Shown here piece after piece: positions 1 to 16,763 of a DNA stretch of 64,000 nucleotides (position 1 is the stretch's first letter; every line of letters starts with the position of its first letter). This stretch comes from an uncultured Acetatifactor sp. Its GTDB lineage: Bacteria > Bacillota > Clostridia > Lachnospirales > Lachnospiraceae. The stretch is from assembly GCA_910586775.1 (NCBI GenBank), contig CAJUJN010000006.1, positions 26,344-90,343 of the forward strand. The letters run 5' to 3'. The notes below the pieces were generated by a model. It did not search any database, was not told the origin of the DNA, and worked only from the letters and a program-made list of their open reading frames with translations. Position numbers and translations under genes: made by a program.

Positions 1-11
1 GTAGCGTCCGG

Positions 12-50
12 GCGGATGCTGTTTTCCAGTTCCGCATCCGCATCTTTTTT
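12..50 (+). terminator. Rho-independent terminator for a plus-strand gene ending upstream of the window
   Basis: GCGGATGC (12-19) pairs with GCATCCGC (34-41) and is followed by ATCTTTTTT. Confidence 0.55.
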
Positions 51-116
51 GTGTTATTTCGACAGTTTATATATCAGAAATATCATATCCTACAAAATCT
101 CATTAGTCAATAGTCT

Positions 117-1283
117 TTAATCCACTCTGTACTGTTCCACCATGCTCATGACTTCGGACGCAAATTCCGGATATTTCTCCGCGATGTCCATGATTTCTTT
201 TCGCGCTGTCTCCGCCACGTCATTGTTATAGTCCATCTGTTTCCGAAGAGCCTGTCTGCGAAGGATAAGGTCATGACGTATTTCCACCATCTCCCGCTTA
301 TCCAGAAGCGCCGCCGGCTGCCCCAGCCACCTTTCCGGACTGGAAATCCGATAACGCGACAGTTCATAAACCAGCTGCTTCCGGTAATATTCCGCCTTCG
401 ATTCCGCTTCCGCGAACTCCCTTCTCTCCTCTTTTTCCTTCTGGTACTTCTTCCAGAGTCTGTCAAGCGCGGCGGCACTCTCCGTATTGTACTTCATGCA
501 GAGATAATCCGTCAGATTCCGATTGTTCACATACCGGATCTTCACCTTGTTCTGAAGCTGGATCAGCTTATTGATGTCTACTTCCACCCGGCGCAGTTCA
601 TTGTCTCCGTCCGTATATTTCACCCAACTGACCGTTACGGCAAGCGCCACCACTGCTCCTGCCAACAGGTACCCCAGCTTCGTATCCATCTGAAAGACGA
701 ACTGCAGTACCAGAAGCATCACAAGGCACATGACAAAAGCTGTCACGAAAATGATTGACATCCCCCGCAGATTATTCAGGATGGCCTCCAGCTCCTGCCT
801 GCGGAACTCGTAAGCATGGCGCTCCATATCCAGCCTTTTCAGATCATGCCTGACCTTCTCGCCGTATTCTTCGCATTCCTTCAGCTTGGCAATACCTTCC
901 TGGACATCTGTCTCCTGCTCCCGCAGACGGTAGTAGTCCACATCCGTCATCCGATTCTTCTTCCCGCGGTATTTATCTCCCTCCTGCTCCATGGCAACCA
1001 GTCTGCCTGCAATGCCGTTCAGCTCCACCCGCTCACTGTCCGGAAGCGCTTCTATCTCTTCCATATCTGTCAGATAAGAAGTAATCAGAGAATACTCTCC
1101 TGTCAGAAGGTTCAGCTCTCTGGAAGCCTCTCCCATCTGTTCCAGACATCCTGTCACATACCGATTCCGCTGCGCATCATCCCTGAAATCCACATGATCC
1201 CGCTCATAGACCACATTTTCCCAGTCGTCAGTGCCGATTTCACGCTGTTTTCTTTTACTGAATAAATTTTTTAAAAATCCCAT
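117..1283 (-). CDS. Bitopic membrane protein with long coiled-coil regions on both sides of two central TM helices; function unknown; last gene of the four-gene cassette
   Basis: 388-aa ORF. Hydrophobic helices are MSIIFVTAFVMCLVMLLVLQFVF and LGYLLAGAVVALAVTVSWV. They are flanked by charged heptad-like E/K/R-rich segments. The start lies 47 nt downstream of the preceding gene. Confidence 0.75.
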   Translation of the reverse strand: MGFLKNLFSKRKQREIGTDDWENVVYERDHVDFRDDAQRNRYVTGCLEQMGEASRELNLLTGEYSLITSYLTDMEEIEALPDSERVELNGIAGRLVAMEQEGDKYRGKKNRMTDVDYYRLREQETDVQEGIAKLKECEEYGEKVRHDLKRLDMERHAYEFRRQELEAILNNLRGMSIIFVTAFVMCLVMLLVLQFVFQMDTKLGYLLAGAVVALAVTVSWVKYTDGDNELRRVEVDINKLIQLQNKVKIRYVNNRNLTDYLCMKYNTESAAALDRLWKKYQKEKEERREFAEAESKAEYYRKQLVYELSRYRISSPERWLGQPAALLDKREMVEIRHDLILRRQALRKQMDYNNDVAETARKEIMDIAEKYPEFASEVMSMVEQYRVD

Positions 1284-1330
1284 TCACCCTTGCTCCTTCT
1301 CGCATCCGCCGACCGATTGCTGCCAGACAT

Positions 1331-2173
1331 TCAGCTGCATCGGTAGCTGTCTTTCAGAGCCTGCACCAGACGCTCATTTTCCTCGTTATACTTCTGACGG
1401 TCACGGCTTTTCAAATCTCTCCGGTTATACAGCTGCAGATAGTCAGGGTGCTTTTCCCATTCTTCCGCCGCCTCCCTGTATTTCTTCTCCAGTTCCTGCG
1501 TCTGTGGGTACCACTCCGTACACCCCGCCGCAAAATCCACATACGCTTTTTCGGAAAGCCGCATTCTCTTTGCCGCCAGATAATCCACGCAATACGCTTC
1601 GTCCCCGCTCAATTCATAAGCCTGCCGAAAGCATTCCGCGGCACTTTCATAAAGCATCAGCCCCGCATAGGCCACACCTTTATTATGCCATATTTCTGCC
1701 TGAAAATCCGATGCCGGCTTTGCCGCGCCCTCTGATTCCTGTGCCTGCCACTTTTGCAGTAACTCGTCATATCCTCTCAAAGCCGGCCTGTATTTTTTCT
1801 TTCGGACCAGATAGTCTACCTGATTCTTGCGCTTTTCAATGCCGCTCAGACCGGCTCCCTTTTTAAGCGCCTGCTCGGTCTCCTGTATGGCCTCCTCACC
1901 ACAGAATCCCACATAGCGTAGAATTGCTACCACAAACTCGCTCAACTGGCCGCGCCTGTGCACCAACGGGTGAAGCCTGTCCGCCAGCTCCCCCAACCCG
2001 CACTCCCGCTCAATCCAGTCCAGCAGTCCGTCATCCAGGAGCGATAAATCCAACAGGAACGCATTCTCCTTCATACAGTAACACAGTTCCTCCATGCTGA
2101 AGACATTCATCTCCAGTCCCGGAATCCGATATGGCTCTTTTGCATAATTCCCCACACAGACACTGACTCGCAT
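1331..2173 (-). CDS. Soluble helical / TPR-like protein of unknown function (cassette gene 3)
   Basis: 280-aa ORF. A TPR-like segment reads AEIWHNKGVAYAGLMLYESAAECFRQAYELSGDEAY. The start lies 25 nt after the upstream gene stop. Confidence 0.7.
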   Translation of the reverse strand: MRVSVCVGNYAKEPYRIPGLEMNVFSMEELCYCMKENAFLLDLSLLDDGLLDWIERECGLGELADRLHPLVHRRGQLSEFVVAILRYVGFCGEEAIQETEQALKKGAGLSGIEKRKNQVDYLVRKKKYRPALRGYDELLQKWQAQESEGAAKPASDFQAEIWHNKGVAYAGLMLYESAAECFRQAYELSGDEAYCVDYLAAKRMRLSEKAYVDFAAGCTEWYPQTQELEKKYREAAEEWEKHPDYLQLYNRRDLKSRDRQKYNEENERLVQALKDSYRCS

Positions 2174-2198
2174 CCTTTGTTTACCCCCATCCGTCCAT

Positions 2199-3461
2199 TT
2201 ACTGCTCTATCTCTATTTCGTCTTTCCATGTACGTCCGGACGCTGCTCTGAATTCTCCAAAGCCAAGATCCTCCGCCTCCACTACCAGACAATGCTCCGT
2301 CTTCATAAAGAAGTGCAGCTTCAGCCTGGCTACTCCTTCCGATAATCCCTCAAGAACCACCCGAACCATCACGCCTTCTTTTCCGGAACCCTTTCCTGCC
2401 TTTGTGTTGCTCCTGATCAGAGGAAGCACCGTAAGCACAATCTCGTTGCCGTCCTGCAGATACACCTCCAACGTCCGCTCGGCCTCATACCAGCTGATGC
2501 CTGCATCCAGAAGCGCATAGTAAGATTCCTCGCCGTTGCGAAGAATCTGCATGCCGATATTGGCCTTCAGCTTTTCATTCCCCAGAAAAACATGGGCTTT
2601 CCCCAGCTCGCCGGGAGCGATTTTCTCCTGCATTGCACAGCACGCGCCCTTGCTGAACAGATTATTCCCCTGAAATACTCTCCTTCCCCTGCACAGAAAG
2701 CGAAGGGACTCCTTCATCCAGTCTCCCTGGAAGCCGTCCCCGATCAGAAAGATGCTTCCGATAAGCCCTTTTCCGCAGGCCTCCTCCACGATCTCCAGCA
2801 ACGCCTCGTCCCGTACCTCCGGAAATGCATACTCCTTCTCCTCCATAAATACCACAATGGGCGTAGTCCGCTTATTCGCCTCCATCCGATATACCCTGAT
2901 ACTGTCCTGTCTGTAATGAAAGAGCAGGGAAGGATACGTCCAAAGTTCCTTCGGCTGCCGAAGCATATAGCTGTAATAACTCTCCGCATGCCCCTGGAAA
3001 GAAACCCTGTCAACCTTAAGCCTGCTCCCTTCCACCACCTGTCCCAGCACTTCCAGAAGCTTTTTATCAATTACGGGACAGGTGACCGTCAGCGCTGAAA
3101 GCTTCTCGCCTGTCTGGGAAAGCTGTCCCAGGCTCCGTCTGAAAAACAATGCCAGCAACGCTATCGGGTCATAGCTTTCCCCTTCCACTACTACCGGTTC
3201 CCCGTCCAATGCCATATTCAGAAGGTTCTCCACCAGAATACCTTCCTGTCTGTCAGCCGCCCGCAACGCCTCCCTGCCGTAAAACCACTGGTTTACTCCA
3301 TGCCGCTTGCAGAGTACGGTCGGTATATGATATTTCTGCTCCCCTGCCACCTGGGAAATGGTCTCTGCCTCCCCGCTTACGGAGAGTGCAAAGCTGATCT
3401 GGCTGACTTCATTTCCCAAATCGTATCCGGCAATCAATTTCGCACCGTTCAGAAATCCCAT
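2199..3461 (-). CDS. Divergent Hsp70/actin-fold (ASKHA-like) protein, possibly the family annotated DUF5716 (from memory, unverified)
   Basis: 420-aa ORF. The N-terminal IAGYDLGNEVSQIS resembles the Hsp70 phosphate-1 motif IGIDLGTTNS. IFLIGDGFQGDW resembles the adenosine motif LVGGSTRIP. An RBS GGGGAAGG precedes the ATG. Confidence 0.7.
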   Translation of the reverse strand: MGFLNGAKLIAGYDLGNEVSQISFALSVSGEAETISQVAGEQKYHIPTVLCKRHGVNQWFYGREALRAADRQEGILVENLLNMALDGEPVVVEGESYDPIALLALFFRRSLGQLSQTGEKLSALTVTCPVIDKKLLEVLGQVVEGSRLKVDRVSFQGHAESYYSYMLRQPKELWTYPSLLFHYRQDSIRVYRMEANKRTTPIVVFMEEKEYAFPEVRDEALLEIVEEACGKGLIGSIFLIGDGFQGDWMKESLRFLCRGRRVFQGNNLFSKGACCAMQEKIAPGELGKAHVFLGNEKLKANIGMQILRNGEESYYALLDAGISWYEAERTLEVYLQDGNEIVLTVLPLIRSNTKAGKGSGKEGVMVRVVLEGLSEGVARLKLHFFMKTEHCLVVEAEDLGFGEFRAASGRTWKDEIEIEQ

Positions 3462-3477
3462 ACTGCTACCTTCCCCT

Positions 3478-6400
3478 CTACTTTAGTACAAACAATCTGC
3501 TGTTCAGGAAATCTCTCTTATAGTATTCCTCCAGCAGGTTATCCATGGTATTACAATCCTGCAGCGACCTGGCCATAGCGATATCATTGAGCAGACGGTA
3601 CCTGCTGTCCTCTTCCTCGCCGGCACCGTCTCCCTTCTGAATCGTACTGCTCTCCGTCACCTGCGTATTCCCGTCTTTTTCCTCTGTGATATAGTACTGG
3701 AGGCTCTCTCCGAAAAAGAGGATGAAGTCTTTAAAGAACACCCCTCCGTAAGCCTCTCGCATATATTCTGACCGGTATCCGTCAGTCTCCCCGTTCTCGT
3801 TGAGAATCGTATAATGAATGCACGCCCTCGTCCCGGGAGCAGTGCGATATTCGATGATGGTCTTGTCCGCCAGTTCCTCCTGCAGAGACTGACACTCTCT
3901 GAATTTCCTGAAAAATTCCAGGTAAATCCCCTCCGATATCATTTCACCCAACAGTTTTACGGCAGTTGCGGCCGTCTCTTCGTCCATTTCATCACGGTTT
4001 TCCGAGAAATATTTCAGAAAAGCCAACTTGCAGACCTTCTGTACCGGTTCTCCGCGGGAATCCATGTAACGGATTTCCCGGAAGACTTCTCTCTCCATCA
4101 CCCGCTCTCCCACAAAACAGTCATATGCACACTGGGCCAGGAATGCTTCTTCCACCTCTACCTTCGCGCCCTGAGAGATATAGTATAGGAAAATCTCCAT
4201 CCGCTCTCCCACAAATGCGCCTGAATACAGCATCTGCACCAGAATTCTCTCGCTGAGGTCATAACAGTCCCTGCCGAAAGCCCTGGCCGCCTTCCAGATA
4301 TCCCGCATGTTCCTGGTCATCCCCTGATAGTACATGCTCAGATACTCCAGAACCATATCATCATATTTTCCCCGCTGAAATGCATACATTGCGGCAGCCG
4401 TCATCAGAGCATCCTCCGCCATCCCGCTTTCTTCCAGCAAAACCCGCAGTAGCCGCACCAATATCTTTGCATCCGCAAAATAAGGCCCATATGTTCGAAT
4501 CCATTGGCCCGCCAGCCTGTGGTTTCCGCGCAGCACCATGTACTTCAATACAGTATCTTTTTCCGCAGAGTCCAGTGCCTCTGCCGGAACCGCCTCCAGA
4601 TGTCTGTCCAATGTCTCCATCTCGTCCGCTTCGTAATAAAACTGCAGAAGCCGCATATACATATCCTTTTTCACGGATGCATCGGCATAATCGGACACAA
4701 GTACCCGCAGTTCCCGTCTTGCCAGATCGACAGGCTCCTCCCTGCACACACTTTCATTGTCGCACAGATAGAGCTCCAGTCCCGGCTCCACCTGTTCGAA
4801 CGGCAGAAGCCACCGAAGGAATTTCCCCGGTATCATCAGCTTCTCCATGGTATACTCCACGCTTTTGACAAAGCGGTTGCCTGCCGCATCCTCAAACACA
4901 ATGGTATATCTGCTGCCGTAAAGCGCCACCCATGTCCGTTTTTCCGTTAATATATATTCGTCAGGATGTCTGTTTCCAGGTTGGTACACATACACCTTCC
5001 GCAGACTCTCATCCTCCACTTTGATCAAATGGGCAAACAGAAGCTTCGAAAGCTGCCAACAGCCCGACCCGTCCACCATATCCTGCCGCAGCACTCCCTG
5101 ATACAGATTTGCCAGGTGCCTGTCGATACGTCCCTTTCCGATCTGCTCCCGGACAAAGGCCTCTATCCTGAGCCGGTAAGCCTCATAAATATCCCCGTAC
5201 TTATCCTTGTGCTGCCATATGTAGTCATAAAGGAAGGCGCTGCGGACATAGTCGAGATTGTTCTGGTAGGAAAAATATTTCAGCACCGATTTGGGCAGTT
5301 CCTCCGCCCTATCCGGGTCCAGTGACAGGAAGAAATGCTCATACAGATTGGCAATCCGCAGCTGATTCTCCACCCCTGCCCTGTACCAGTCGAGATACCC
5401 CTTTCCCGCCTTGCCCCCCTTGACCAGCAAAGTACAGATTTCCTGCAGAAGCTGTATGTCTTTTTTCTTTCCGTACAGCCTGCTCATCGTCTGAAACAGC
5501 AGCTCCGAATACTCTTTCACCTTGCTGACCAGATAGAGCATCTGGTCCACTGCCTCCCGCTTCAGACCCCCCTGTCTGGAACCATAGCTTAATATCTGCC
5601 GCTCAAAGCTTCCCAGCTTCCTCAGCAGAGCAGGATTCCCGTTTATCATGGAAAGGGCCTCTATATACAGCACAGGACTTGTACAGCCCCGGGAGTACAG
5701 CCTCTCCAAAAGCCCCCATTTGTCCCTGTCCGAGCCGCGATAATCCCGCGACAGATACAGAAGCAGCCACGCCACCCGCCAGTTCGCGGGGTCCCGGCGA
5801 AATATATGCCCCACGTCTTCCGCCACCTTGTCCACATATTCCTCGTCTCCGTGGATCAGGGTAGTCAGATAGAGATAATATGCCAGAAGGGTATCGTCCG
5901 TCTGCCCGTTTTCGAACAGATCGGATACATGGTCCAACAGCCAGTTCGCCTCCTGGTACCTTTCCTCCGTAATCAGCAGCTGTGCCTGGAACAGACGAAA
6001 GCCGATGTCATTCTCGTCCATGGCCACCAACTGTTCCACCAGCCTGCCCGTCTCCTTCAGCCATGCGCTCGTCCCGATCTTACGCAGTCTGAAATCCTGA
6101 TATGACTTCATCAGCCGGACAATGCACCTCTTCCTGTCCGCATCCGGCCTGCCGTAAAAATATCCCCTGCCGTAACGCACTGTCACCGGAATCCTCAGCT
6201 CCGTATAGGCATTGTACAGGCGAATCTCTCCCATATTCTGCCCGCCATGGCAAGTACTTCCGTCAAAAAACACCTGAAGACCGCATCGGTTATCCTGAAA
6301 ATCTTCTTCCGTCAGGATTTCCCGCTCCGTATAGAAAAAGTCCCCTCTGCATTCCACACAGAGCATCGTAAAACCCCAGCCGTTTCGCAGGACATTCAGC

Positions 6401-7053
6401 TCCTGCTTCAGCACTGCGCCGCTGCTTTCCATTTCCACCTGCAGGGAATCCTGTTCCGTCAGGAACTCTATCCTCTGCTTCTTATTAGCCTGTATCAGGA
6501 ATTCCTCTACATGCTGTCCGCTTCCCTCATAAACCGAAAGCGCCCTGTAGTCCTGCCTGTATCCCGCATCGCTTCCCGAAAAAATCTGCTCAAATTCCGG
6601 GGTATAATATAACTGCACGGCTTCCTTCCAGTTGCTTTTCGCCAGATTTGCAAAATGGAACAGATTTCGGATACTCCCTATGGAAGACTCCGGCACCGTG
6701 CGTGTCACCGATATCACAAAGGGAAGATAATACTCCCCCTGATTGCTGACAATGTCAAAAGTTCCTTTGACTACATCTCGTTCTTCAAGATTCTCCCCGT
6801 GAAAACGAAAAGAAATCTCCCCGTCAGAGCCGGAGAATTCCCCTGTCAGGCACTCCATCCGCCAGTCTGAAGAAAAAACGCTTCCATTGACAAACACCCC
6901 CTGCTGAGCATACACATGAAAGGTACCTTCGTAAATTTCTCCCTTCCTTATATTCAGCTCTATTTTTGCACAGGAAAATTCAAGAGAGCCATTCTCATAG
7001 TCGAATTTTCCCTCCAGTATCTGTTCGATTCTCTGCTGTTTTTGCTTCTGCAT
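3478..7053 (-). CDS. Giant (about 1191 aa) helical-repeat protein with N-terminal beta-sandwich-like module, possibly the family annotated DUF5717 (from memory, unverified)
   Basis: The ORF is open to a GTG at 7119 (1213 aa). I prefer the ATG at 7053 (MQKQKQQRIEQILEGKFDYENG), because a TTGACA-17-TATTTT promoter lies inside the longer version. No catalytic motifs were recognised. Confidence 0.75.
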   Translation of the reverse strand: MQKQKQQRIEQILEGKFDYENGSLEFSCAKIELNIRKGEIYEGTFHVYAQQGVFVNGSVFSSDWRMECLTGEFSGSDGEISFRFHGENLEERDVVKGTFDIVSNQGEYYLPFVISVTRTVPESSIGSIRNLFHFANLAKSNWKEAVQLYYTPEFEQIFSGSDAGYRQDYRALSVYEGSGQHVEEFLIQANKKQRIEFLTEQDSLQVEMESSGAVLKQELNVLRNGWGFTMLCVECRGDFFYTEREILTEEDFQDNRCGLQVFFDGSTCHGGQNMGEIRLYNAYTELRIPVTVRYGRGYFYGRPDADRKRCIVRLMKSYQDFRLRKIGTSAWLKETGRLVEQLVAMDENDIGFRLFQAQLLITEERYQEANWLLDHVSDLFENGQTDDTLLAYYLYLTTLIHGDEEYVDKVAEDVGHIFRRDPANWRVAWLLLYLSRDYRGSDRDKWGLLERLYSRGCTSPVLYIEALSMINGNPALLRKLGSFERQILSYGSRQGGLKREAVDQMLYLVSKVKEYSELLFQTMSRLYGKKKDIQLLQEICTLLVKGGKAGKGYLDWYRAGVENQLRIANLYEHFFLSLDPDRAEELPKSVLKYFSYQNNLDYVRSAFLYDYIWQHKDKYGDIYEAYRLRIEAFVREQIGKGRIDRHLANLYQGVLRQDMVDGSGCWQLSKLLFAHLIKVEDESLRKVYVYQPGNRHPDEYILTEKRTWVALYGSRYTIVFEDAAGNRFVKSVEYTMEKLMIPGKFLRWLLPFEQVEPGLELYLCDNESVCREEPVDLARRELRVLVSDYADASVKKDMYMRLLQFYYEADEMETLDRHLEAVPAEALDSAEKDTVLKYMVLRGNHRLAGQWIRTYGPYFADAKILVRLLRVLLEESGMAEDALMTAAAMYAFQRGKYDDMVLEYLSMYYQGMTRNMRDIWKAARAFGRDCYDLSERILVQMLYSGAFVGERMEIFLYYISQGAKVEVEEAFLAQCAYDCFVGERVMEREVFREIRYMDSRGEPVQKVCKLAFLKYFSENRDEMDEETAATAVKLLGEMISEGIYLEFFRKFRECQSLQEELADKTIIEYRTAPGTRACIHYTILNENGETDGYRSEYMREAYGGVFFKDFILFFGESLQYYITEEKDGNTQVTESSTIQKGDGAGEEEDSRYRLLNDIAMARSLQDCNTMDNLLEEYYKRDFLNSRLFVLK

Positions 7054-7109
7054 TTTCTTCACCCGTTTCTGCTTCTGAATAGCCTGCTCCTGCCACGGAA
7101 CAATTATAG

Positions 7110-7138
7110 AAAATAGCACATCCGTTCTTATTTGTCAA
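7110..7138 (-). promoter_or_regulatory. Candidate sigma-A promoter of the four-gene cassette
   Basis: On the minus strand: TTGACA (7138-7133), a 17-nt spacer, then TATTTT (7115-7110). It sits in the 38-104 nt gap after the ABC permease gene. Confidence 0.3.
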
Positions 7139-7157
7139 GTCGTGCCCGCAGCCTGTG

Positions 7158-7997
7158 TCAATCCATATTCAGCTTATTACTCGTCACATACCATGATACA
7201 AAGTAAAGGCACACGGCAATCAACAGCTTGATGAGGAAGTTGGAATGAGCCGACCTGCCCACATATGTGCCGAAGCTGGACAGGCTGCTGAATGTCACAA
7301 AGCTGCGGATTATGGAAGAAAGGAGCGATTCCGCTATCATGATGCCGATATAACTCAGTATTGCCATCAGCACCCGGTGCCTCGAAGCCAGCTGTCCGAT
7401 GGAAATCGCGCCAAACAGTGTGGTCAACGTTATAAAAGGCGAAATCAGGGAAGTGATAATCGCCGTTACAAACCATACATCGAACTCAATCCCCAACTCC
7501 AGCCCTGCCATCCGGAATAAGTCTCCCGCTCCCTCGCTGAACCCCTGCCAAAATTCCAGGAACGTATACTGATCCGGCACAATGGCCCAGGCCATGGCAA
7601 ACCCCAGCAGGAATATGGACAGATACATGGAAAAGACAACGATCAGAACCCACAGGCTGCCCACTAAAATCTTGCTGATCAGTATCTCGTGTTTCGTCAC
7701 CGGCAGCGTATGAAGCAGATATCCCTCGTCCGTATACATGGTTTTGTAAAAATGAACTCCGATATATACCAGAATACCGACATTTACCACCACTAACAAT
7801 ATCACATACATGACCAGCGTAAACGCCCCGAAGATATCCAGCCAGCTGAAACGGCTCCCTCCCTCTCCCATCGACCTCCACATGGGTGTCTGGAACGACA
7901 GCCAGCCAAAAAAGGTAATCAGAGCCATGGCTATCAGCATCAGGCACCCTGTCTTATAAGTACTCTTCCATTCGTGTTTGATCAGCTTGCCTAACAT
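7158..7997 (-). CDS. ABC-2 type transporter permease
   Basis: 279-aa polytopic membrane ORF. It overlaps the upstream ATPase gene by 7 nt. Confidence 0.8.
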   Translation of the reverse strand: MLGKLIKHEWKSTYKTGCLMLIAMALITFFGWLSFQTPMWRSMGEGGSRFSWLDIFGAFTLVMYVILLVVVNVGILVYIGVHFYKTMYTDEGYLLHTLPVTKHEILISKILVGSLWVLIVVFSMYLSIFLLGFAMAWAIVPDQYTFLEFWQGFSEGAGDLFRMAGLELGIEFDVWFVTAIITSLISPFITLTTLFGAISIGQLASRHRVLMAILSYIGIMIAESLLSSIIRSFVTFSSLSSFGTYVGRSAHSNFLIKLLIAVCLYFVSWYVTSNKLNMD

Positions 7998-8692
7998 GCG
8001 AACACCTCCCTGAAATACGCGTCTACGGATTTTCCGTGCTGCTGTCTGATATTATCCGCAGAATTATAGAGCACCAGATAGCCGTACCGCATGAAAATAA
8101 CCTCGTCAAGCACCTGCTCGATATCCCCAATCAAATGGGTAGAGATCAGCACAGACGCTGCCGGATTGTAATTGTTGACGATTGTGCGCAGGATATAATC
8201 TCTGGCCGCGGGGTCCACCCCTGCAATGGGCTCATCCAGGATATAGAGATCCGCATTCCGGCTCATCACCAGGATCAGCTGCACCTTCTCCTTCGTTCCC
8301 TTTGACAGAGTACTCATCCTGGCAGTCGGCTCTATGCCCAGGCTCTGCAGCATCCCAATTGCCCTCTCCCTGGAAAAATCTGCGTAGAAATCACAGAAAT
8401 AATCCAGTATTTCGTTTATTTTTTTATTTCCCGCCAGGTAGGTCCTGTCGGGGAGATATGCCACCCTGGCCTTGGTTGCCACGCCCGGCTCCTGGCCGTT
8501 AATGCAGATGCTTCCCCTCGTGGGGGCCAGCAGCCCGTTCAGCATCTTAATCAGAGTGGTCTTGCCGCTGCCGTTGGGTCCCAAGAGACCTATAATCTTG
8601 CCTCTGGGCAGCTTCAGGCTGATATTGTTTACCGCTATATGACGTTCGTCGTAGGCTTTCGTCAGGCCGACGATTTCTACCAGTTCGCTCAT
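7991..8692 (-). CDS. ABC transporter ATP-binding protein
   Basis: Walker A GPNGSGKTT, signature LSKGTKEKV and Walker B LYILDEP. The ATG at 8692 is preceded by AGGAGG. The ORF-track start at 8719 would run through that RBS. Confidence 0.9.
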   Translation of the reverse strand: MSELVEIVGLTKAYDERHIAVNNISLKLPRGKIIGLLGPNGSGKTTLIKMLNGLLAPTRGSICINGQEPGVATKARVAYLPDRTYLAGNKKINEILDYFCDFYADFSRERAIGMLQSLGIEPTARMSTLSKGTKEKVQLILVMSRNADLYILDEPIAGVDPAARDYILRTIVNNYNPAASVLISTHLIGDIEQVLDEVIFMRYGYLVLYNSADNIRQQHGKSVDAYFREVFAC

Positions 8693-8821
8693 CTTTTTCC
8701 TCCTGTTCCGCTTCCGCACTTTCCCGTAAATCCTCCGGACACCGGGTGGGCAAGTGCTGTTTTCCGCTTCCGCACTTCCCCAGCCGCAACAATTCCTGGG
8801 CAGAAAATTTCCGGCACATTC

Positions 8822-8850
8822 AGTATACTATTAATGTGGGTGGATTTCAA
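8822..8850 (-). promoter_or_regulatory. Candidate sigma-A promoter of the ABC-2 transporter operon
   Basis: On the minus strand: TTGAAA (8850-8845), a 17-nt spacer, then TATACT (8827-8822). Confidence 0.45.
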
Positions 8851-8980
8851 GAAAAAAACAGGATTCCCCGGATTTTAGAGACATCTTTTTGACAGACAGC
8901 AGGACAGCGTAACCTCTTTGCCGGAAATGCATATATTAACATGACGAATCAATTGCACCCTATGCGTGCCCGAGGACATT

Positions 8981-10261
8981 ATGCCTGATACAAATACAAC
9001 AATCACACAGGAACCGGCAGCCAATACCGTCTCTTACGCCGGCAGCATCAAAATCAGCGTGGTCTCTTCTGTCGGAATGATTCCCATTGAAAATGCCACA
9101 GTCACCATATCATACACGGGAGACCCGGAAGAACCCCTGTTTGTCCTTACCACTGACAGTTCCGGGCAGACTCCCGTAACAGAGCTTCCGGCACCGCCCC
9201 TGAATCTGTCCCTGCAGCCGGAAAACGAACAGCAGCCTTATTCTGAATTTAATATTGAGGTCACGGCGGAAGGGTATGAGCCGGTACTGGTATCCGGTTC
9301 GGAGATTTTCGCAGATGAGCTTTCTCTCCAGCCCATCCGTATGAATCCCCTGGCGACCACGGAAGAAGGGGAAAAAACCATCATTATTCCCGCCCACACT
9401 TTATTCGGGGACTTTCCGCCCAAGATACCGGAGGATGAGATCAAGCCCATGCCGGAAAGCGGCGAAATCGTCCTGAGCCGTGTGGTAATCCCTGAATATG
9501 TCATAGTTCATGACGGGGTTCCCAACGACCCCACCGCACGCAATTACTGGGTAAGGTACAAGGATTATATTAAGAATGTGGCTTCCTGCGAAATATATTC
9601 CACCTGGCCGGAAAATGCGATTTATGCAAATCTTCTGGTGATTATGTCCTTTACGCTGAACAGAGTATATACCGAGTGGTACCGGAACCAGGGCTATGAT
9701 TTCACCATCACATCCTCCACCGCTTATGACCAGAAATGGGTATACGGACGGAATATTTTTGAAAATATTGATTACCTTGTAGATACGATTTTCGCAAATT
9801 ACCTGTCCCGCCCCGGCGTGCGTCAGCCCATATTCACTTCCTACTGCGACGGGCGCAGGGTGACCTGTTCGGGGTTAAGTCAGTGGGGTTCCATGTACCT
9901 GGCGGAGCAGGGTTATTCTGCCATTGAAATCATACGTTATTACTACGGAAATGATATGTATATCAATACGGCAGATATTATCTCAGGCGTCCCTTCCTCC
10001 TGGCCGGGATACAATCTGAGCCAGGGCTCCTCCGGCGAGAAGGTTCGACAGCTTCAGACTCAGCTGAACCGGATTGCAAGGAATTATCCCGCCGTCCCCA
10101 CCGTTACTGCGGACGGTATCTACGGACCGGCTACCGCTAATGCCATTCGGACTTTTCAGGGAATTTTCAATCTGCCCCAGACAGGGGTGACAGATTATGC
10201 CACATGGTATGAGGTTTCGGATATTTACGTAGGTGTTTCGAGAATTTCGGAACCGGGATGA
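8981..10261 (+). CDS. Peptidoglycan-binding domain protein with SpoIID/LytB-like central region and N-terminal beta-sandwich region
   Basis: The C-terminal segment GSSGEKVRQLQTQLNRIARNYPAVPTVTADGIYGPATANAIRTFQ is PG_binding_1-like. The ATG at 8981 is preceded by GAGGA. The ORF track starts at a GTG at 8966. Confidence 0.75.
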   Translation: MPDTNTTITQEPAANTVSYAGSIKISVVSSVGMIPIENATVTISYTGDPEEPLFVLTTDSSGQTPVTELPAPPLNLSLQPENEQQPYSEFNIEVTAEGYEPVLVSGSEIFADELSLQPIRMNPLATTEEGEKTIIIPAHTLFGDFPPKIPEDEIKPMPESGEIVLSRVVIPEYVIVHDGVPNDPTARNYWVRYKDYIKNVASCEIYSTWPENAIYANLLVIMSFTLNRVYTEWYRNQGYDFTITSSTAYDQKWVYGRNIFENIDYLVDTIFANYLSRPGVRQPIFTSYCDGRRVTCSGLSQWGSMYLAEQGYSAIEIIRYYYGNDMYINTADIISGVPSSWPGYNLSQGSSGEKVRQLQTQLNRIARNYPAVPTVTADGIYGPATANAIRTFQGIFNLPQTGVTDYATWYEVSDIYVGVSRISEPG

Positions 10262-10344
10262 AAAAAATTAGTGCATCCCTTCTTTCAGACACTGAAACCG
10301 CCACATCAGGCAGTCTCCGCACAGGATATGACATCCTGCAATAT

Positions 10345-10445
10345 TATACTGCGCACCGGTTAAATTACAGTACAACCCGACTGCAGACCGCCAGCCAGGT
10401 ACTTTCCCGGAGGCATCACTGTAAATCCTGGCTGTCTGCAGTATA
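10345..10445 (+). repeat. Copy 1 of a ~101-nt intergenic hairpin element with terminal inverted repeats TATACTGC / GCAGTATA
   Basis: About 88% identical to 39177-39278. The internal 14-bp stem pairs CTGCAGACCGCCAG with CTGGCTGTCTGCAG. It lies between convergent genes. Confidence 0.8.
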
Positions 10446-10492
10446 TCATATCCTGTGCCGGCACAGCATAATCCGCTTCAGCTCCGCCTGCT

Positions 10493-13400
10493 TTACTCTA
10501 CTCTGACAGTGCTCGTAATACCCTCCCTGTCTCTGGATTTCGTGACGATAATTTTCTTATCAATCCTGTCTTTCAACTCACCCACATGAGATATGATTCC
10601 CACCAGGCGTTTTCCTTCAGTAAGCTGTGTCAATGCTTTTATCGCCTGATTCAGGGCATCCTCGTCCAGGGAGCCGAATCCCTCGTCCACAAACATGGAG
10701 TCCATCCGGATTCCTCCCGCATAGGACTGAATTTCGTCCGCCAGCCCCAGGGCAAGGGACAGAGAGGCCTGAAAAGATTCTCCTCCCGAGAGGGTTTTCA
10801 CGCTTCGCTCCGTGGCATTGTAGTGGTCTGTGACGCTTAGTTCCAGACCGGCTTTCCTGTTGAGATTCTCCGCCTCCTGTACCCGCTTCAGTTCATACTG
10901 TCCGTTGCTCATGGTCATAAGCCGCAGATTCGCCCGCCTTATGATGCGGTCAAAATAAGTCATTTGAACATAGGTCTCCAGTTCGACCTTCTGTTTGCCG
11001 GTCAGGGTTCCGTTGGCAGTGTCTGACAGCGCTTTCATCCATACATATTTCTTTTCTACTACAGTTATGTCTTCCTGCTGTATCCTGACCTTCGACAGGA
11101 TATCCCGGTTCTGTAAAAGTGCCCGGTTCTTTCCGTCACGTTTTCCGCTCAGCAGCTTTTTCTCATCCTGCCGCTGCGCCTTTCTGGCCAGCACGTCCTC
11201 TTCCCTGGCGCATCCCGCCTCTCCTGCACCCGCAAGCTGTCTTCGAAGCGTATCTGCCGCCGATGCAAGACGCTCACTTTGTGTACGGCATTCCGTATAG
11301 CTTTCTTCGGCGGCCTTCCAGGCTGTCTCCAGGGAGATTTGGCAGTTTTGAAGCCATGCAATCTTTTCCTCGCAATCCTCTTTCGTGCCGTCTCCCAGCT
11401 GTCTGACAAGTCCGTCAATCTTTTCCTTCCTCGCTCTGAGTTCCGCCTCTTTTTCGGCGGCGGCCAGCTCTGATCTCTGTATTTCTTCTTCCAGCTTTCC
11501 GATTCGTCCTTCCGTCTCAGGAATCAGAATGCCCAGTTCCTGCCGGATTCGCAGTTCTTCCTGTTTTCTCTCCAATTGTGTTTCCAGCAGGGCCAGTTCT
11601 TCTCCCAGTCTCTTCTCCGTGTCAAAGGCAAGCTCTCTCAGTGCTTCCTCCTCGTTTCGCCCGGATACCGGGATATCCTTATCACTCTCCCCGAAAGATG
11701 TGACTACTGCACCTCTCAGTTTCAGTGCCGCCTTTATCTCCCCGATCTTCTTACTGTTCTCAGGCGACGGAGCATTTTCATCCTCCTGTCCTTCCCAATA
11801 CACCAGCAGATTCTCCAGAAGCTGCCCGGCTTTTTCCATTCTCCTGCTCTTAACTGCCGTCAGCTGTGTTTCCATTTCACCCAGCAATTCTTTTATCTGC
11901 AGCCGAACCTCTTCTTTCCGAAGCCTGTCTGCCTTCATCTGTTCCCGGAATCCGATTTCCTCTTCGAGCCCCTTTTTCCAGTTCTCCAGGTCCTCCAGAT
12001 AGCTCTGTATGAAAAATACCGCTTCGGGCAGCTCTGCGGATTTGCACGCCCCTGCATCCTGCAGAATATTCTTTGATTCCTGCCCGGATTGACAAAACTC
12101 CATTCCTCTGATTTCCGTCTGCTTTTTCAACTGTATATCGGCTTCTTTCAGAAGCTGAATCGTCACTTCGTATTCCCTAGTAAGCTGCTGTTCCGCAGTA
12201 TCCGCCTGCCCTTTCAGCTGTGCGCAATACGCCTTCTGTTCTGCAGTTTCAGCCTCCAGTTCCTGCTTTTCCCTCTCCGCCTCCTCAGCCTTCGCTTCCA
12301 GGGCTTCCAGACGCCTGCGTCCTGCCTGAGCCTGCTGAAGCGCTTCTCCCGCCTGTTTTTGAGCTTCCTGCAGATAATCGGACATTTTGTCCCGTTTTTC
12401 CGGCAGCCCTTCCATAAGCACTTCCGGAAAATCCAACTCCGAAATCAGTTTCTTCCACTGTTTCTGCCGTTCCTCCAACTGACCTTCCACCGTGTGATAA
12501 ACCTGCATCGCAGCCTGCTGCCTGCTGTCCAGTTCCTTCTGCAGGCTTTCTGCCTCTTTCATCAGCGCATCCAGGTCCCTTTTCCGAAGACAGGCGCTCT
12601 CGGCTCTTTGCAATTCCAGCTTCAATTGTTCTGCCTTCTGTCTTATCAGACGCCCTGCTTCTGACAGTTTATCACGCAGCGCTTCCGGCGTCGGTTCACC
12701 TTCCTGTGTCTGCCCGCTTCTCCCGGAAATAGTTTCTGCCTGTTTTGAAGCCGCCTCATCTCCCGGCCTTTCCGCAATTTCAGATTCTACTCCGACTTCA
12801 GTATGTTCCTGTGTTCCAATCCCCAATGCCCCAAAAAATTCCGAAGCCTGTCCCCCAATCCTGCACCATTGTTCCTCAAGCTGCTCTCCCAGATTCCCGG
12901 CACTTGCGCTGAGCTCTGCGGCTCTCTGTTCCGCCGCCGAAAGCTGTTTCTTTTTGCTTTCCAGCTCGTCTTTCTCCGGAACATGCTCCGGAATCAGTGC
13001 CTTTACAGGATGATGCGTGGAACCGCAGACAGGACATGCCTCCCCCTCCTTTAATTCCCGGGCCAGCAGCCCGGCCTGGGCATCCAGAAAACACTGTTCC
13101 AGCTTCCGGTAGGCCTCTCCCAGTTTTTCTTTTTCATCCGAAGCGATTCTGTACTCCTGACGGATGCCGTCAAGCTTATTCCGGCTTTCTTCCCAACGGA
13201 GCACATCCCCGGTCAGGTTCTTCCGCATGCTCTCCGCTTCCAGCATCTTATCCTTCCGCCCTGTTAAAATCAGTTTGTCCGCTTCGCAATCCTTAATCTG
13301 CTCCCATTCCTCCGCGTAAACTTTCCCTGCTTCTCTCTGCTTTTCCGCCGCCATACACTGCCGTTCATAAGCCTGTTTCAGCCCGGCCGCCTGTTCCTCT

Positions 13401-15079
13401 GAAGCTTTCAGATTATCTGCCTGCTCCCGGAAACGTCTCAGTCTGTCCTCCGCTGCCTCCGCCTGGCTGCGGCATGCAATCTCCTTCTCCCGGATGCCTT
13501 TTAGCCCGTCCTGTTCCTTTCTTCGCTCCTTCTCTTCCTCCTGTACCTTTTCCGCACGGACTGCCAGTTTCTCCAGGGCCGCGGCAGCACGGCTCCTCTC
13601 CTGTCCTGTCCTGCTTAAACCTTTTCCCAGCTCCTCCAGACATTCCATCCGTTCCTTCAGCTTCCTTCCCGTCTCCTCCACGGTAAAAAGCATTTCGTTG
13701 CGGTCGGCCAGGCGCTCTTCTTTCTTCTGCAGCTCTTCAATGTCGGATGTCAATTCTTTTTCTTTTTCTCGGTTTATCGCTATATCTTTTTCTGCGGCTT
13801 CCTGCCCGCGGATTTCCTGTTTCCATCCTTCAGATTGCCGATGCAGATTCTGTCTCTGCTGCAGTGCATTCTTCCTTTTATTTTCCAGGCGCTCCTTTTC
13901 CTGCCCCGCCATTTCCAGAGCCCTGTAACGTTCCTGCTGTACCTGCAAAGTCTCTCTGGAAACCTGCCTTTGTCCGGCAAGTGACTCTTTCCGCTTCCTT
14001 TCCCCGGCAATTGTCAGTTCATCTGCCTGCTGCGCTTTTCTCTCCCCATCCAGGCTGTCAAAAAGTTCCAGATTCTTCTGCTCCTGCTGAATCCGGATTT
14101 CCAGCTGGCTGCACTCGCTGCCTGCCTTTTTGGCCTCCTCCCAACGCGCCTTCCGCTTCACAAGCTCCGGCTGCAGTTCCTCAAACTGCTTCCGTGTCTC
14201 TTCAAGCGTCTTTCTCTGCTCCTCCACATGCCTGATGCTCCCCAGCAGCTGCTCTTCTCTCCTGATTTTTTCCTCCAGGTCTTCCAGTTCGGAGTCCATT
14301 GTCTCCAGCGCCTCCGCATCCTCTCTGCACAGTTCCTCCAGCAGTTCCATGCCTTCCCTTATACGGCCGTCAAATGTTTCCTTCTGCAATTCCCTCAGCC
14401 GCATTGCCGCGCGCACATTCTCTGCATCCTGGTATACAATTCCGTCCATGTACTGGCTGATGCTGCGCTTTAATTCGCTGTATTCCTGCTCCTGCTGCCT
14501 GACTTCCGTTTTCAGCTTCTCCTGGATGTCCTGATAAAGGGCAGTATTGAATATCTGCCGGAATATGGGACTTCTGTCCCTGGTCTCCGCCAGCAGAAGC
14601 TTCTGGAAATCTCCCTGGGCAATCATGACTATCTGCGTGAACTGCTTCCGGTTCAGCCCGATCAGCTCCGTCACCGCCCTGGTCACATCCTTCGTTTTCG
14701 TCACCGGAGCCCTTCCGTCAGGATAGAGCAGCTCTGCATCGGCATCCGTCTTCGTATATCCCGTTCCTCTTTTCTTAAGCCTGTAATACTCCGGATTTCG
14801 TTTTACAGTATACTGTTTTTCATGATATACGAAAGTAAATTCCACATATGTCGGAACGGTATCCTCCGCGTATTTACTGCGGAACATATCCGCCGTCCGC
14901 ACCCCTCCGCTGGCTTCTCCATATAAAGCAAACGTAATTGCGTCAAAAATGGTGGTCTTACCCGCTCCCGTATCCCCTGTGATCAGATACAGTCCGCTTC
15001 CCCCGAATCTGCCGAAATCTATTTCCGTCCTGTCCGCATATGGTCCAAAGGCACTCATAATCAGTTTAACCGGTTTCAT
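10493..15079 (-). CDS. sbcC: SbcC/Rad50-family double-strand-break repair ATPase, unusually long (1528 aa)
   Basis: N-terminal Walker A GDTGAGKTT, zinc hook CPVCGSTHHP, C-terminal signature LSGGESF and Walker B MFVDEGFGSLD. The ATG at 15079 is preceded by GGAGG. Confidence 0.93.
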   Translation of the reverse strand: MKPVKLIMSAFGPYADRTEIDFGRFGGSGLYLITGDTGAGKTTIFDAITFALYGEASGGVRTADMFRSKYAEDTVPTYVEFTFVYHEKQYTVKRNPEYYRLKKRGTGYTKTDADAELLYPDGRAPVTKTKDVTRAVTELIGLNRKQFTQIVMIAQGDFQKLLLAETRDRSPIFRQIFNTALYQDIQEKLKTEVRQQEQEYSELKRSISQYMDGIVYQDAENVRAAMRLRELQKETFDGRIREGMELLEELCREDAEALETMDSELEDLEEKIRREEQLLGSIRHVEEQRKTLEETRKQFEELQPELVKRKARWEEAKKAGSECSQLEIRIQQEQKNLELFDSLDGERKAQQADELTIAGERKRKESLAGQRQVSRETLQVQQERYRALEMAGQEKERLENKRKNALQQRQNLHRQSEGWKQEIRGQEAAEKDIAINREKEKELTSDIEELQKKEERLADRNEMLFTVEETGRKLKERMECLEELGKGLSRTGQERSRAAAALEKLAVRAEKVQEEEKERRKEQDGLKGIREKEIACRSQAEAAEDRLRRFREQADNLKASEEQAAGLKQAYERQCMAAEKQREAGKVYAEEWEQIKDCEADKLILTGRKDKMLEAESMRKNLTGDVLRWEESRNKLDGIRQEYRIASDEKEKLGEAYRKLEQCFLDAQAGLLARELKEGEACPVCGSTHHPVKALIPEHVPEKDELESKKKQLSAAEQRAAELSASAGNLGEQLEEQWCRIGGQASEFFGALGIGTQEHTEVGVESEIAERPGDEAASKQAETISGRSGQTQEGEPTPEALRDKLSEAGRLIRQKAEQLKLELQRAESACLRKRDLDALMKEAESLQKELDSRQQAAMQVYHTVEGQLEERQKQWKKLISELDFPEVLMEGLPEKRDKMSDYLQEAQKQAGEALQQAQAGRRRLEALEAKAEEAEREKQELEAETAEQKAYCAQLKGQADTAEQQLTREYEVTIQLLKEADIQLKKQTEIRGMEFCQSGQESKNILQDAGACKSAELPEAVFFIQSYLEDLENWKKGLEEEIGFREQMKADRLRKEEVRLQIKELLGEMETQLTAVKSRRMEKAGQLLENLLVYWEGQEDENAPSPENSKKIGEIKAALKLRGAVVTSFGESDKDIPVSGRNEEEALRELAFDTEKRLGEELALLETQLERKQEELRIRQELGILIPETEGRIGKLEEEIQRSELAAAEKEAELRARKEKIDGLVRQLGDGTKEDCEEKIAWLQNCQISLETAWKAAEESYTECRTQSERLASAADTLRRQLAGAGEAGCAREEDVLARKAQRQDEKKLLSGKRDGKNRALLQNRDILSKVRIQQEDITVVEKKYVWMKALSDTANGTLTGKQKVELETYVQMTYFDRIIRRANLRLMTMSNGQYELKRVQEAENLNRKAGLELSVTDHYNATERSVKTLSGGESFQASLSLALGLADEIQSYAGGIRMDSMFVDEGFGSLDEDALNQAIKALTQLTEGKRLVGIISHVGELKDRIDKKIIVTKSRDREGITSTVRVE

Positions 15080-15130
15080 CTTACACTCCTCCATACGTCA
15101 GCGGCCGTACACCCCTGTTCAGCGTAAGTC

Positions 15131-16291: not shown

Positions 16292-16331
16292 CGATATCCC
16301 CCGTTCCTTTTTCAGGTATTCCTGAATCCTT

Positions 16332-16763
16332 TTATCCTTCCCACTCCTCATATTCCGGTTCTTCAGCCGCCTCATGTCTCAGCAGCCCAAGAATCACGTG
16401 ATAAATCCCCCGAAATACGGAAAACACCAGAAACATGCTGATAAAACCCAACACCCCAAACATGATGTCCGCAAATTCCATCGCCCCTGTATTGGTGATT
16501 CTCTGGCCAATCTCAATGGCAAATGTAATCACAATAATTAGCGTAAATACGTATATCCAGCTGATTGCCATGACATGGTTGTTTTTCGCCAGCCATTTGA
16601 ACAGTGGATGTACCACGAATATCATCGCCATTCCAAGCGCGCCTATAATCAGAAAATGCAGTTCCTTATCCGTAAAATCATACTCATAAGCGTCATTCAT
16701 CCGCAGCAGAAATCTGTGTATCTTCGCAATCATCTCTACCACGGCGTACAAAAATTCTTTCAT
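16332..16763 (-). CDS. Small integral membrane protein, unknown function
   Basis: 143-aa ORF with 3-4 hydrophobic helices. It lies directly upstream of sbcD on the same strand. Confidence 0.6.
   Translation of the reverse strand: MKEFLYAVVEMIAKIHRFLLRMNDAYEYDFTDKELHFLIIGALGMAMIFVVHPLFKWLAKNNHVMAISWIYVFTLIIVITFAIEIGQRITNTGAMEFADIMFGVLGFISMFLVFSVFRGIYHVILGLLRHEAAEEPEYEEWEG

Follow-up and report, generated by a model that had tools for sequence, protein, structure and literature searches.

What does a cassette of four genes do in the cell, when its two large protein families are known merely as DUF5717 and DUF5716, two catalogued domains of unknown function? This question is raised by positions 117-7138 of the stretch of DNA analysed here, 64,000 nucleotides (nt) of contig CAJUJN010000006.1 from an uncultured Acetatifactor species of the Lachnospiraceae (below, the window). 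A sequence-only reading had seen in it a membrane-tethered scaffold or chaperone-like machine, built of a giant helical-repeat protein, an ATPase-fold subunit, a tetratricopeptide repeat (TPR) adaptor and a membrane anchor. Here we find that the second gene, judging from its predicted structure, encodes a true but very divergent Hsp70, that in some relatives this protein is naturally fused to the TPR protein, and that the four genes stay together in the same order through the whole family. The genes, numbered from the upstream end, are:

3478-7119 from GTG, or 3478..7053 from ATG (1191 amino acids, aa), minus strand: open reading frame (ORF) of gene 1, the giant DUF5717 protein
2199..3461, minus strand: gene 2, 420 aa, the DUF5716 protein
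1331..2173, minus strand: gene 3, 280 aa, the TPR protein
117..1283, minus strand: gene 4, 388 aa, a putative membrane anchor

The ORF coordinates give exactly the 16, 25 and 47 nt that had been read as the gaps between these co-directional genes. The two DUF labels of the sequence-only reading are correct according to the Pfam scan (PF18984 and PF18983 for gene 1, PF18980 for gene 2). As that reading expected, no characterised family is assigned to the proteins at the sequence level by Pfam, NCBIfam, PADLOC or PHROGs, and no paper in a literature search mentions either DUF relevantly: the search returned one irrelevant match and no experimental or computational description of the system.

The answer begins with gene 2. 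Its residues 124-418 match DUF5716_C (PF18980) with E 2.4e-86 and 289.8 bits against a cut-off of 34.7, covering model positions 2-296 of 296. An AlphaFold2 (AF2) model of the protein was built from 39 sequences, with a predicted local distance difference test score (pLDDT) of 81.9 and a predicted template modelling score (pTM) of 0.75. When it is compared with the PDB by Foldseek, the top 50 matches are all Hsp70s, headed by DnaK 4ani_C (E 4e-19, template modelling (TM) score about 0.5) and then 2v7y, 7kru and 5obu, with Ssz1, BiP and Hsc70 after them. The best targets are DnaK constructs that consist of the nucleotide-binding domain and the beta substrate-binding domain without the lid. There are 301 matches at E <=1e-3, and sequence identity is 9-14%. 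The model thus has the predicted two-domain fold of an Hsp70, with a beta-sandwich substrate-binding domain after an actin-like nucleotide-binding domain.

Sequence comparisons were made in parallel. Pfam HSP70 (PF00012) gives no match to gene 2 at E up to 0.1, no PDB chain is matched at E up to 10, whether the query is the single sequence or the family profile, and BLAST with the DnaK sequence finds nothing. An hhalign comparison of 135 diverse DUF5716 members with Escherichia coli DnaK pairs residues 7-411 with 1-503, at E 5.7e-4 for this single comparison and a probability of 30%; the DnaK sequence used was typed by hand, and the alignment is to be treated with corresponding caution. A narrower alignment of the DUF5716 family gives only a local match of 45 columns to DnaK. 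No dnaK gene is present in the window or in the loci compared with it. Because the top 50 Foldseek matches are all Hsp70s and hhalign aligns the family with DnaK, we conclude from the modelled fold that the DUF5716 product is a true but very divergent Hsp70. The ASKHA (acetate and sugar kinase, Hsc70 and actin) fold proposed earlier for this 420-aa protein is borne out by AF2, Foldseek and hhalign, and is refined to an Hsp70 with both domains. The two domains, and the blocks that hhalign aligns between gene 2 and DnaK, are:

2595..3461, minus strand: residues 1-289, predicted nucleotide-binding-domain fold of Hsp70 type, without subdomain IIB and with degenerate phosphate loops
2202..2594, minus strand: residues 290-420, predicted beta substrate-binding-like domain, a linker-like hydrophobic HVFLG and then the beta-sandwich
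Aligned block: gene 2 GYDLGNEVSQ, DnaK GIDLGTTNSC
Aligned block: gene 2 WFYGREA, DnaK LVGQPAK
Aligned block: gene 2 EGESYDPIALLALFFRRSL...LTVTCPV, DnaK KGQKMAPPQISAEVLKKMK...AVITVPAYF
Aligned block: VYLIGDGF (family consensus; IFLIGDGF in the window protein), DnaK VILVGGQT
Aligned block: gene 2 NLFSKGAC, DnaK DEAVAIGAA
Aligned block: gene 2 LEGLSEGVARLKLHFFMKTEHCLVVEAEDLGFGE, a 38-residue stretch of DnaK

LIGDGF and RVFQGNNLFSKGAC in gene 2 are the counterparts of LVGGxxR and NPDEAVAIGAA in DnaK. In the second domain the model is all-beta over residues 300-417, and hhalign pairs residues 372-411 with DnaK 460-503.

Two parts of an ordinary Hsp70 are missing. Subdomain IIB is replaced by a single helix (residues 218-229) between the strands of lobe II, so that DnaK residues of about 230-340 remain unmatched, and there is no helical lid, as the protein stops at the beta-sandwich with 420 aa, while about 600 are needed for DnaK. 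The canonical ATP site of Hsp70s (DxGTTxS, K70, DLGGGTFD) is not found in gene 2 either. FHYRQDSIR, which varies among relatives, stands in place of DLGGGTFD, and the Gly-rich phosphate-2 loop is thus absent; of the phosphate-1 loop D14 is kept (in 80% of the family) and the remainder is variable; the position of the catalytic Lys70 of DnaK is N79, again variable across the family. Hence, of the 'ATPase-fold subunit' of the sequence-only reading the fold stands, and the canonical nucleotide-binding loops do not, so that the protein may not be an ATPase. In our view a canonical ATPase cycle is improbable for the window protein. The usual Hsp70 helpers are not seen in the cassette: no cassette protein matches the DnaJ or GrpE families that would point to a J-domain co-chaperone or a nucleotide exchange factor, and the one HPD tripeptide, located in gene 3, is not conserved by the relatives.

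The second piece of evidence comes from gene 3 and the way it is joined to gene 2. The following parts of the gene 3 product are distinguished:

about residues 1-100: separate, conserved N-terminal domain, for which no match was found
1598..1699, minus strand: residues 159-192, TPR motif (TPR_1)

The window protein itself matches TPR_1 with E 1.2e-4 and 22.2 bits, which is below the Pfam cut-off of 27.8. The motif is matched by 16 of 20 relatives (best E 5.6e-7), and the family profile matches consensus TPR proteins with E 1.6e-13. Judging from the relatives and the profile, the 280-aa protein, described earlier as TPR-like, carries a genuine TPR. The same profile gives weak matches, spanning residues 110-240, to Tah1 (E 0.002), Sec72 (0.05), PP5 (0.16) and CHIP (0.3); TPR profiles cross-match easily, and this likeness to TPRs that bind Hsp70 or Hsp90 is a lead only.

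Of the best 150 cluster representatives, at least 8 have genes 2 and 3 joined in one gene, coding for 685-765 aa, with the gene 2 homologue first, then a short linker, and the full gene 3 homologue at the C-terminus. These fusions are real and no assembly artefacts, because one fusion cluster comprises 1109 member sequences on many contigs and a 726-aa fusion (WP_026504008.1) is present in the cultured Butyrivibrio sp. NC3005. At the fusion loci the cassette consists of three genes, namely gene 1, the fusion and gene 4. That the two genes are naturally fused is a strong indication, from the comparison of relatives, that the Hsp70-like protein and the TPR protein work as a single unit. The fusion places the TPR protein straight after the beta substrate-binding domain, i.e., at the position that the helical lid occupies in ordinary Hsp70s. 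Separately, we note that the 90%-identity cluster of P0390 mixes 417-aa DUF5716 proteins with 262-aa entries named 'tetratricopeptide repeat protein', which is probably a clustering artefact caused by bridging read-through or fusion sequences.

How widely is the cassette conserved? Within the species, 21 contigs carry the identical gene 2 protein, each time with the same neighbours. In a scan with one genome per species, at least 454 species hold a relative. The 80 best loci, examined in Acetatifactor-like Lachnospiraceae at 48-87% identity, show the same succession of the four genes on every contig that is long enough. Metagenome contigs were scanned with an alignment of a distant sub-family, whose identity with gene 2 of the window is about 30%, and the 80 further loci obtained have these four genes in the same order. 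Altogether the complete cassette is present in 141 loci, falling into 32 groups at 70% identity, and three more loci from the most divergent branches keep the gene order, down to about 27% identity. The most divergent gene 2 homologue looked up, that of locus L168, has 388 aa and is 29% identical to the query over 39-40% of its length; there the four-gene cassette sits between rarA and pheST. At this locus gene 1 and the rarA/mgsA-type AAA gene upstream of it share 4 nt (6438-6441), so that rarA and the cassette may form one transcript. When 1.84 billion cluster representatives are searched with a profile, 1493 family clusters at 50% identity are collected, and the source names seen are Lachnospiraceae, Clostridiales, Eubacterium or Butyrivibrio, and nothing else. 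Thus the co-conservation on which the four-gene reading depended was checked and holds through the whole family.

The neighbours of the cassette are housekeeping genes that change by lineage. In the Acetatifactor clade they are purB and a glutamine amidotransferase gene, and elsewhere gltX, pcrA/uvrD, a P-type ATPase gene, an aminotransferase gene, groEL, rarA or pheST. The G+C content of the cassette (0.50-0.54) and its strand skew equal those of the surrounding DNA. A fixed housekeeping position, native base composition and retention through the family are what is typically seen in a vertically inherited core module and not in a mobile island. A phage or plasmid origin was considered too and is ruled out, as 2.9 million viral contigs yield a single locus, located at the end of its contig, and plasmids have no homologue of the cassette.

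The genes also seem to be expressed together, from a promoter of their own:

7110..7138, minus strand: sigma-A-type promoter match, TTGACA (7138-7133), 17-nt spacer, TATTTT (7115-7110)

The site, which the sequence-only reading had already pointed out, agrees with the consensus at 10 of 12 positions and has an extended -10 TG two bases ahead of TATTTT. Taken singly, such a match is little evidence, because 11 consensus matches are observed in the region and 8.3 +/- 3.0 are expected. It is the relatives that make the case. Of 29 sequence groups, 22 have a like site 60-110 nt ahead of gene 1, compared with 15% of control windows taken inside gene 1; its form is TTGCCC-17-TGnTATAAT in most groups and TTGCAA-17-TATAAT in distant lineages. 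From this conservation across relatives we conclude that the cassette has, as far as sequence can tell, its own conserved promoter of the housekeeping sigma type. The start of gene 1 is likely the ATG at 7053, because the N-termini of the relatives align with it (consensus MQKII.QILEGNFDYENGSL) and the GTG at 7119 sits within the promoter match, with the ATG 3' of it. Genes 2-4 are each preceded by a purine-rich ribosome-binding site, and the median spacings across 31 sequence groups are 24, 16 and 14 nt. Neither the cassette itself, nor the stretch that separates gene 1 from the upstream permease gene, nor the 116 nt that follow gene 4 contain a convincing intrinsic terminator, and no conserved RNA element in the window passes the Rfam gathering thresholds. 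One constitutively expressed operon appears to be the best explanation for the four genes.

What would hold such a protein pair in place? Gene 4 offers a candidate anchor:

621..761, minus strand: residues 175-221 of gene 4, predicted hairpin of two transmembrane helices with a loop of about 9 residues (hydropathy)

The two hydrophobic helices span residues 175-193 and 203-221, with hydropathy peaks of 2.9 and 2.05, in agreement with the two central transmembrane helices that had been read in this 388-aa protein. They are flanked by charged helical regions (residues 1-174 and 222-388), whose profile matches to coiled-coil chains are insignificant. The hairpin is kept in all relatives, including L168-L170, while its sequence drifts. 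Because the loop is short and both charged regions are large, the two regions are probably on the same side of the membrane, presumably the cytoplasmic one. Conserved motifs are NKVKIRYVN just past the second helix and REMVE.RH.L..RRQ.LR near the C-terminus. At the N-terminus there is a conserved hydrophobic-basic peptide, MGFLKNLFSKRKQR, with M1 invariant and F8 present in at least 90%. Hsp70 substrate-binding domains favour hydrophobic-basic peptides; this peptide could equally be a membrane-binding amphipathic helix. No Pfam or NCBIfam family reaches its threshold with gene 4, and DUF2207_C is matched weakly by 12 of 20 relatives. The anchor protein of L168 is, with 494 aa, about 100 residues longer at the N-terminus.

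The largest protein, the product of gene 1, has the look of a scaffold. It matches DUF5717_N (PF18984; E 1.9e-274, 913 bits) and DUF5717 (PF18983; E 1.9e-101, 340 bits), both with a cut-off of 25 and both over the full model. The AF2 model (43 homologues, mean pLDDT 81.9) divides it as follows, with the first two regions also supported by Foldseek:

6172..6984, minus strand: residues 24-294, two immunoglobulin (Ig)-like beta-sandwiches (24-116 and 196-294) with a helical insert between them (131-188)
3862..6147, minus strand: residues 303-1064, TPR-like alpha-solenoid of about 700 residues (first part 303-672, second part 743-1064), broken by a small beta domain (674-738)
3481..3828, minus strand: residues 1076-1191, small beta module (1076-1139) and low-confidence tail

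Model and Foldseek thus agree with the earlier picture of a protein of about 1191 aa, made of a beta-sandwich module and long helical repeats. The N-terminal region matches ASH/Ig-like ciliary central-pair proteins, the SPD-2 domain of CEP192 and titin Ig over about 290 aligned columns, and the solenoid matches Naa15, Ctr9, Ski3, spliceosomal HAT proteins, IFT-A and UNC-45 with E from 1e-5 to 4e-4; with TM-scores <=0.14 against the PDB these matches are generic and give the fold class only. Sequence searches of PDB chains with gene 1 find nothing significant. Among 13 diverse members there are 74 invariant residues, mostly aromatic, Gly and Leu; no conserved catalytic-type residues and no catalytic signature are found among them. 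A metal or Fe-S site was considered as well and is ruled out, since no Cys/His cluster is conserved in these members. As hydropathy reveals no hydrophobic segment, the product is presumably cytoplasmic. Gene 1 looks like a cytoplasmic scaffold, and nothing points to an enzyme.

The end of this protein deserves separate mention. Residues 1139-1191 are modelled with pLDDT <50, yet the C-terminal 50 residues, with the motifs SRYxLxN and LFxL, are conserved like the rest of the protein. Because the tail is well conserved though modelled at low confidence, it fits a candidate partner-binding segment that would fold on its partner. In several human-gut metagenome contigs (L117, L136, L146-L148, L151 and L153) gene 1 and/or gene 4 are split into 2-4 ORFs beside cassette genes that are intact; these splits could be assembly frameshifts or pseudogenes of some strains.

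Taking the four proteins together, we tentatively suggest, at a little below even chances, that the cassette encodes a constitutive membrane-tethered complex, specific to the Lachnospiraceae and organised around a stripped-down Hsp70, with a holdase or scaffold role. The hairpin protein of gene 4 would tether the complex to the membrane on its cytoplasmic side. Gene 2 would act mainly as a peptide clamp or a structural subunit, rather than as a cycling ATPase, with the TPR protein of gene 3 sitting at the lid or co-chaperone position. The Ig/TPR protein of gene 1 would serve as the client-binding platform. The likeliest job of such a complex would be the holding, assembly or quality control of a protein or an envelope-associated assembly at the membrane during vegetative growth. 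Our guess is that the beta substrate-binding domain of gene 2 accommodates either the N-terminus of gene 4, MGFLKNLFSKRKQR, or the C-terminal tail of gene 1. The models and Pfam support the structural statements of the sequence-only reading, and its machine is still a proposal. Beyond the gene 2-gene 3 pair, we infer the complex, its topology, the lost ATPase cycling and the holdase or assembly role.

Several observations speak against this proposal. Acidic residues of the ASKHA core are retained in the family (D14 in 80%, D/E182 in 73%, D/E242 in 78%), and some DUF5716 members may still bind or hydrolyse nucleotide; in the window protein position 182 is His. The DnaK alignment is weak at the sequence level, and the equivalences given by hhalign and those set by eye differ by 1 residue near position 182 and by 4 near 156-160, an uncertainty of 1-4 residues that does not rescue the missing loops. 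Last, TPR and Ig domains are generic, so that 'scaffold' is the default reading for proteins made of them.

A bolder form of the proposal is that the cassette represents a new class of Hsp70-derived machine, found in the Lachnospiraceae only and near-universal there, which has neither lid nor subdomain IIB, is independent of J-proteins and GrpE, carries a TPR lid in trans or fused, works with a 1200-residue Ig/TPR platform at the membrane and does a lineage-specific housekeeping job in the assembly of membrane or envelope proteins. We regard this stronger version as possible and clearly less probable than the complex as such.

Among the other explanations, a cytoskeletal or morphogenetic machine survives best, and even so it is improbable. 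Here the actin-fold subunit would polymerise on the anchor like FtsA, MreB or ParM, and gene 1 would be a spacer or ruler for division or cell shape. Such a role suits the ASKHA fold of gene 2, a membrane-anchored partner with flanking helical regions, and a module with core-genome behaviour, vertical inheritance and a vegetative-type promoter. However, the top 50 structural matches of gene 2 are Hsp70s without an actin-like filament former among them, its beta-sandwich of the substrate-binding type is lacking in filament-forming ASKHA proteins, and the loops that drive polymer dynamics through nucleotide binding are degenerate.

An anti-phage or conflict system, in which the Hsp70-like and TPR proteins would be the sensors and gene 4 a membrane-disrupting effector, appears less probable again. 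Effectors with two transmembrane helices and TPR sensors are common in defence systems, the cassette has no known housekeeping function, and 3 of 20 gene 4 relatives match SLATT_1. These SLATT_1 matches are marginal (E >=0.05), at chance level, and are taken as chance hits of a membrane hairpin. None of the four proteins matches PADLOC-DB 2.0 at E up to 0.1; NCBIfam and PHROGs give no match for the cassette proteins. Neither does the distribution fit: there is no plasmid match and the one viral locus in 2.9 million contigs, the position beside housekeeping genes is fixed across the genus-level clade, the cassette is kept family-wide, and its G+C content is that of the surroundings. Finally, Pfam detects no nuclease, protease, TIR or other effector domain.

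To about the same small degree we would credit the cassette as an accessory of the genes upstream of it, assembling or regulating an exporter or a peptidoglycan-remodelling enzyme. Directly upstream on the same strand there are two ATP-binding cassette (ABC) transporter genes (window 7158-8719, minus strand), which code for an ATPase (233-242 aa) and a six-helix ABC-2-type permease (279 aa) and overlap each other by 7 nt. The pair lies 38 nt from the GTG ORF of gene 1 with no terminator between, and next door, at window 8966-10261 on the plus strand, is a gene for a 431-aa protein with a PG_binding_1 domain and weak similarity to SpoIID. In most loci of the Acetatifactor clade the ABC pair adjoins the cassette. 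Nevertheless, it is absent or separated in L037, L041, L055 and L081 and about 1 kb off in others, it adjoins the cassette in none of the distant loci L088-L168, and the cassette's own conserved promoter argues against dependence on it. In L169 a GntR regulator gene, the ABC pair and the PG_binding_1 gene follow each other on one strand, apart from the cassette; in L170 the ABC pair and the PG_binding_1 gene stand together at the start of the locus, with other genes separating them from the cassette, as a unit of their own. Hence, the ABC genes are ruled out as fifth and sixth cassette genes by the neighbourhood comparison, by which the pair is best taken as a neighbour and not a component. 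With the PG_binding_1 gene it looks like a separate, YtrA-like envelope module.

Least probable of all is an assembly factor specific to sporulation or germination, e.g., for coat or cortex, even if many Lachnospiraceae form spores and large scaffold proteins are typical of spore morphogenesis. The conserved promoter belongs to the housekeeping sigma-A type, Butyrivibrio, described as a non-spore-forming genus, has the cassette too, and the SpoIID-like, peptidoglycan-binding neighbour is not conserved beside it.

Some further features of the neighbourhood were recorded. Beyond the PG_binding_1 gene, at window 10493-16375 on the minus strand, a 1533-aa SbcC-type protein and then a 414-aa ORF are encoded; homologues of the 1533-aa protein in L002-L004 carry AAA_23 and SbcC_Walker_B domains, and the two ORFs are taken to be an sbcCD nuclease pair unrelated to the cassette. 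In two loci of the window species (L001, 1678-4481; L005, 1099-3902) the position of the window sbcC gene is occupied by a gene for a 586-aa large serine recombinase (Resolvase and Recombinase domains) with a 95-aa partner gene, and the PG_binding_1 gene is cut to 233 aa. This insert looks like a strain-specific mobile element, a few kb upstream of the cassette.

On the other side, just past the stop of gene 4 (window 14-52 and 82-110 region), there is a promoter-like TTGACT-17-TATGAT on the minus strand, probably the promoter of the downstream gene purB, which is seen in L001-L003. The same region holds an 8-bp GC-rich hairpin, GCGGATGC...GCATCCGC; it is not a canonical cassette terminator, because its T-run is on the plus strand only. 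The GC skew of the plus strand is strongly negative throughout window 1-14000 (-0.06 to -0.34) and the long genes are mostly on the minus strand; if the minus strand is the leading replication strand near here, both skew and gene strand are as expected.

Lachnospiraceae are among the most abundant human and mouse gut bacteria. A cassette conserved through a family of this major gut lineage has been known only as two domains of unknown function. What is new here is the recognition of DUF5716 as a divergent Hsp70 with a substrate-binding domain and without lid and subdomain IIB, its natural fusion to the TPR protein, the definition of a four-gene core (three genes where fused), the exclusion of the ABC transporter from it and its core-genome behaviour. 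The minimal-Hsp70 identity gives a concrete entry point for binding assays, structures of the complex and deletion studies. If the proposed complex is true, it would widen the known range of uses of the Hsp70 fold in bacteria and would add a core machine of the cell that is particular to one lineage of ecological importance.

Last, we compare the cassette with known systems. The long alpha-solenoids of Naa15 (NatA), Ctr9, Ski3, IFT-A and UNC-45, which organise complexes, are the best matches for residues of about 300-1064 of gene 1. They share with it the fold class only (TM-score <=0.14, identity 8-13%), are all eukaryotic, and are without the tandem N-terminal Ig-like modules and the inserted beta domain. 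The TPR co-chaperones Hop, CHIP, PP5, Tah1 and Sec72 couple a TPR to an Hsp70 fold, as gene 3 does with gene 2. However, TPRs of the Hop/CHIP type bind a free EEVD C-terminus, while the cassette has no conserved EEVD and in the fusions the C-terminus of the Hsp70-like part is not free; gene 3 also has its conserved N-terminal domain, which is unrelated to these co-chaperones.

HscC of E. coli is an Hsp70 paralogue encoded beside the membrane-anchored helical DjlB/DjlC and has a job separate from that of DnaK. Like gene 2, it is an Hsp70-type protein with dedicated membrane-anchored partners encoded alongside; unlike gene 2, it is full-length, matches the Hsp70 family by sequence and keeps its ATPase site active, and its partners act via J domains. 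The closest conceptual precedent for gene 2 is Ssz1 of the yeast ribosome-associated complex (Ssz1-Zuo1). Ssz1 is an atypical Hsp70 and a stable subunit of its complex, with a truncated substrate-binding domain, no functional lid and no productive ATPase cycle. Its structures are among the Foldseek matches of the gene 2 model (6sr6_C with E 2e-16; also 7x3k_B and 5mb9_A). Ssz1 differs from gene 2 in being eukaryotic, in keeping subdomain IIB, in binding ATP and in its J-protein partner, which docks on the ribosome. In the cassette, which is without a J domain, the partners are instead a TPR protein, a giant Ig/TPR protein and a membrane hairpin protein.

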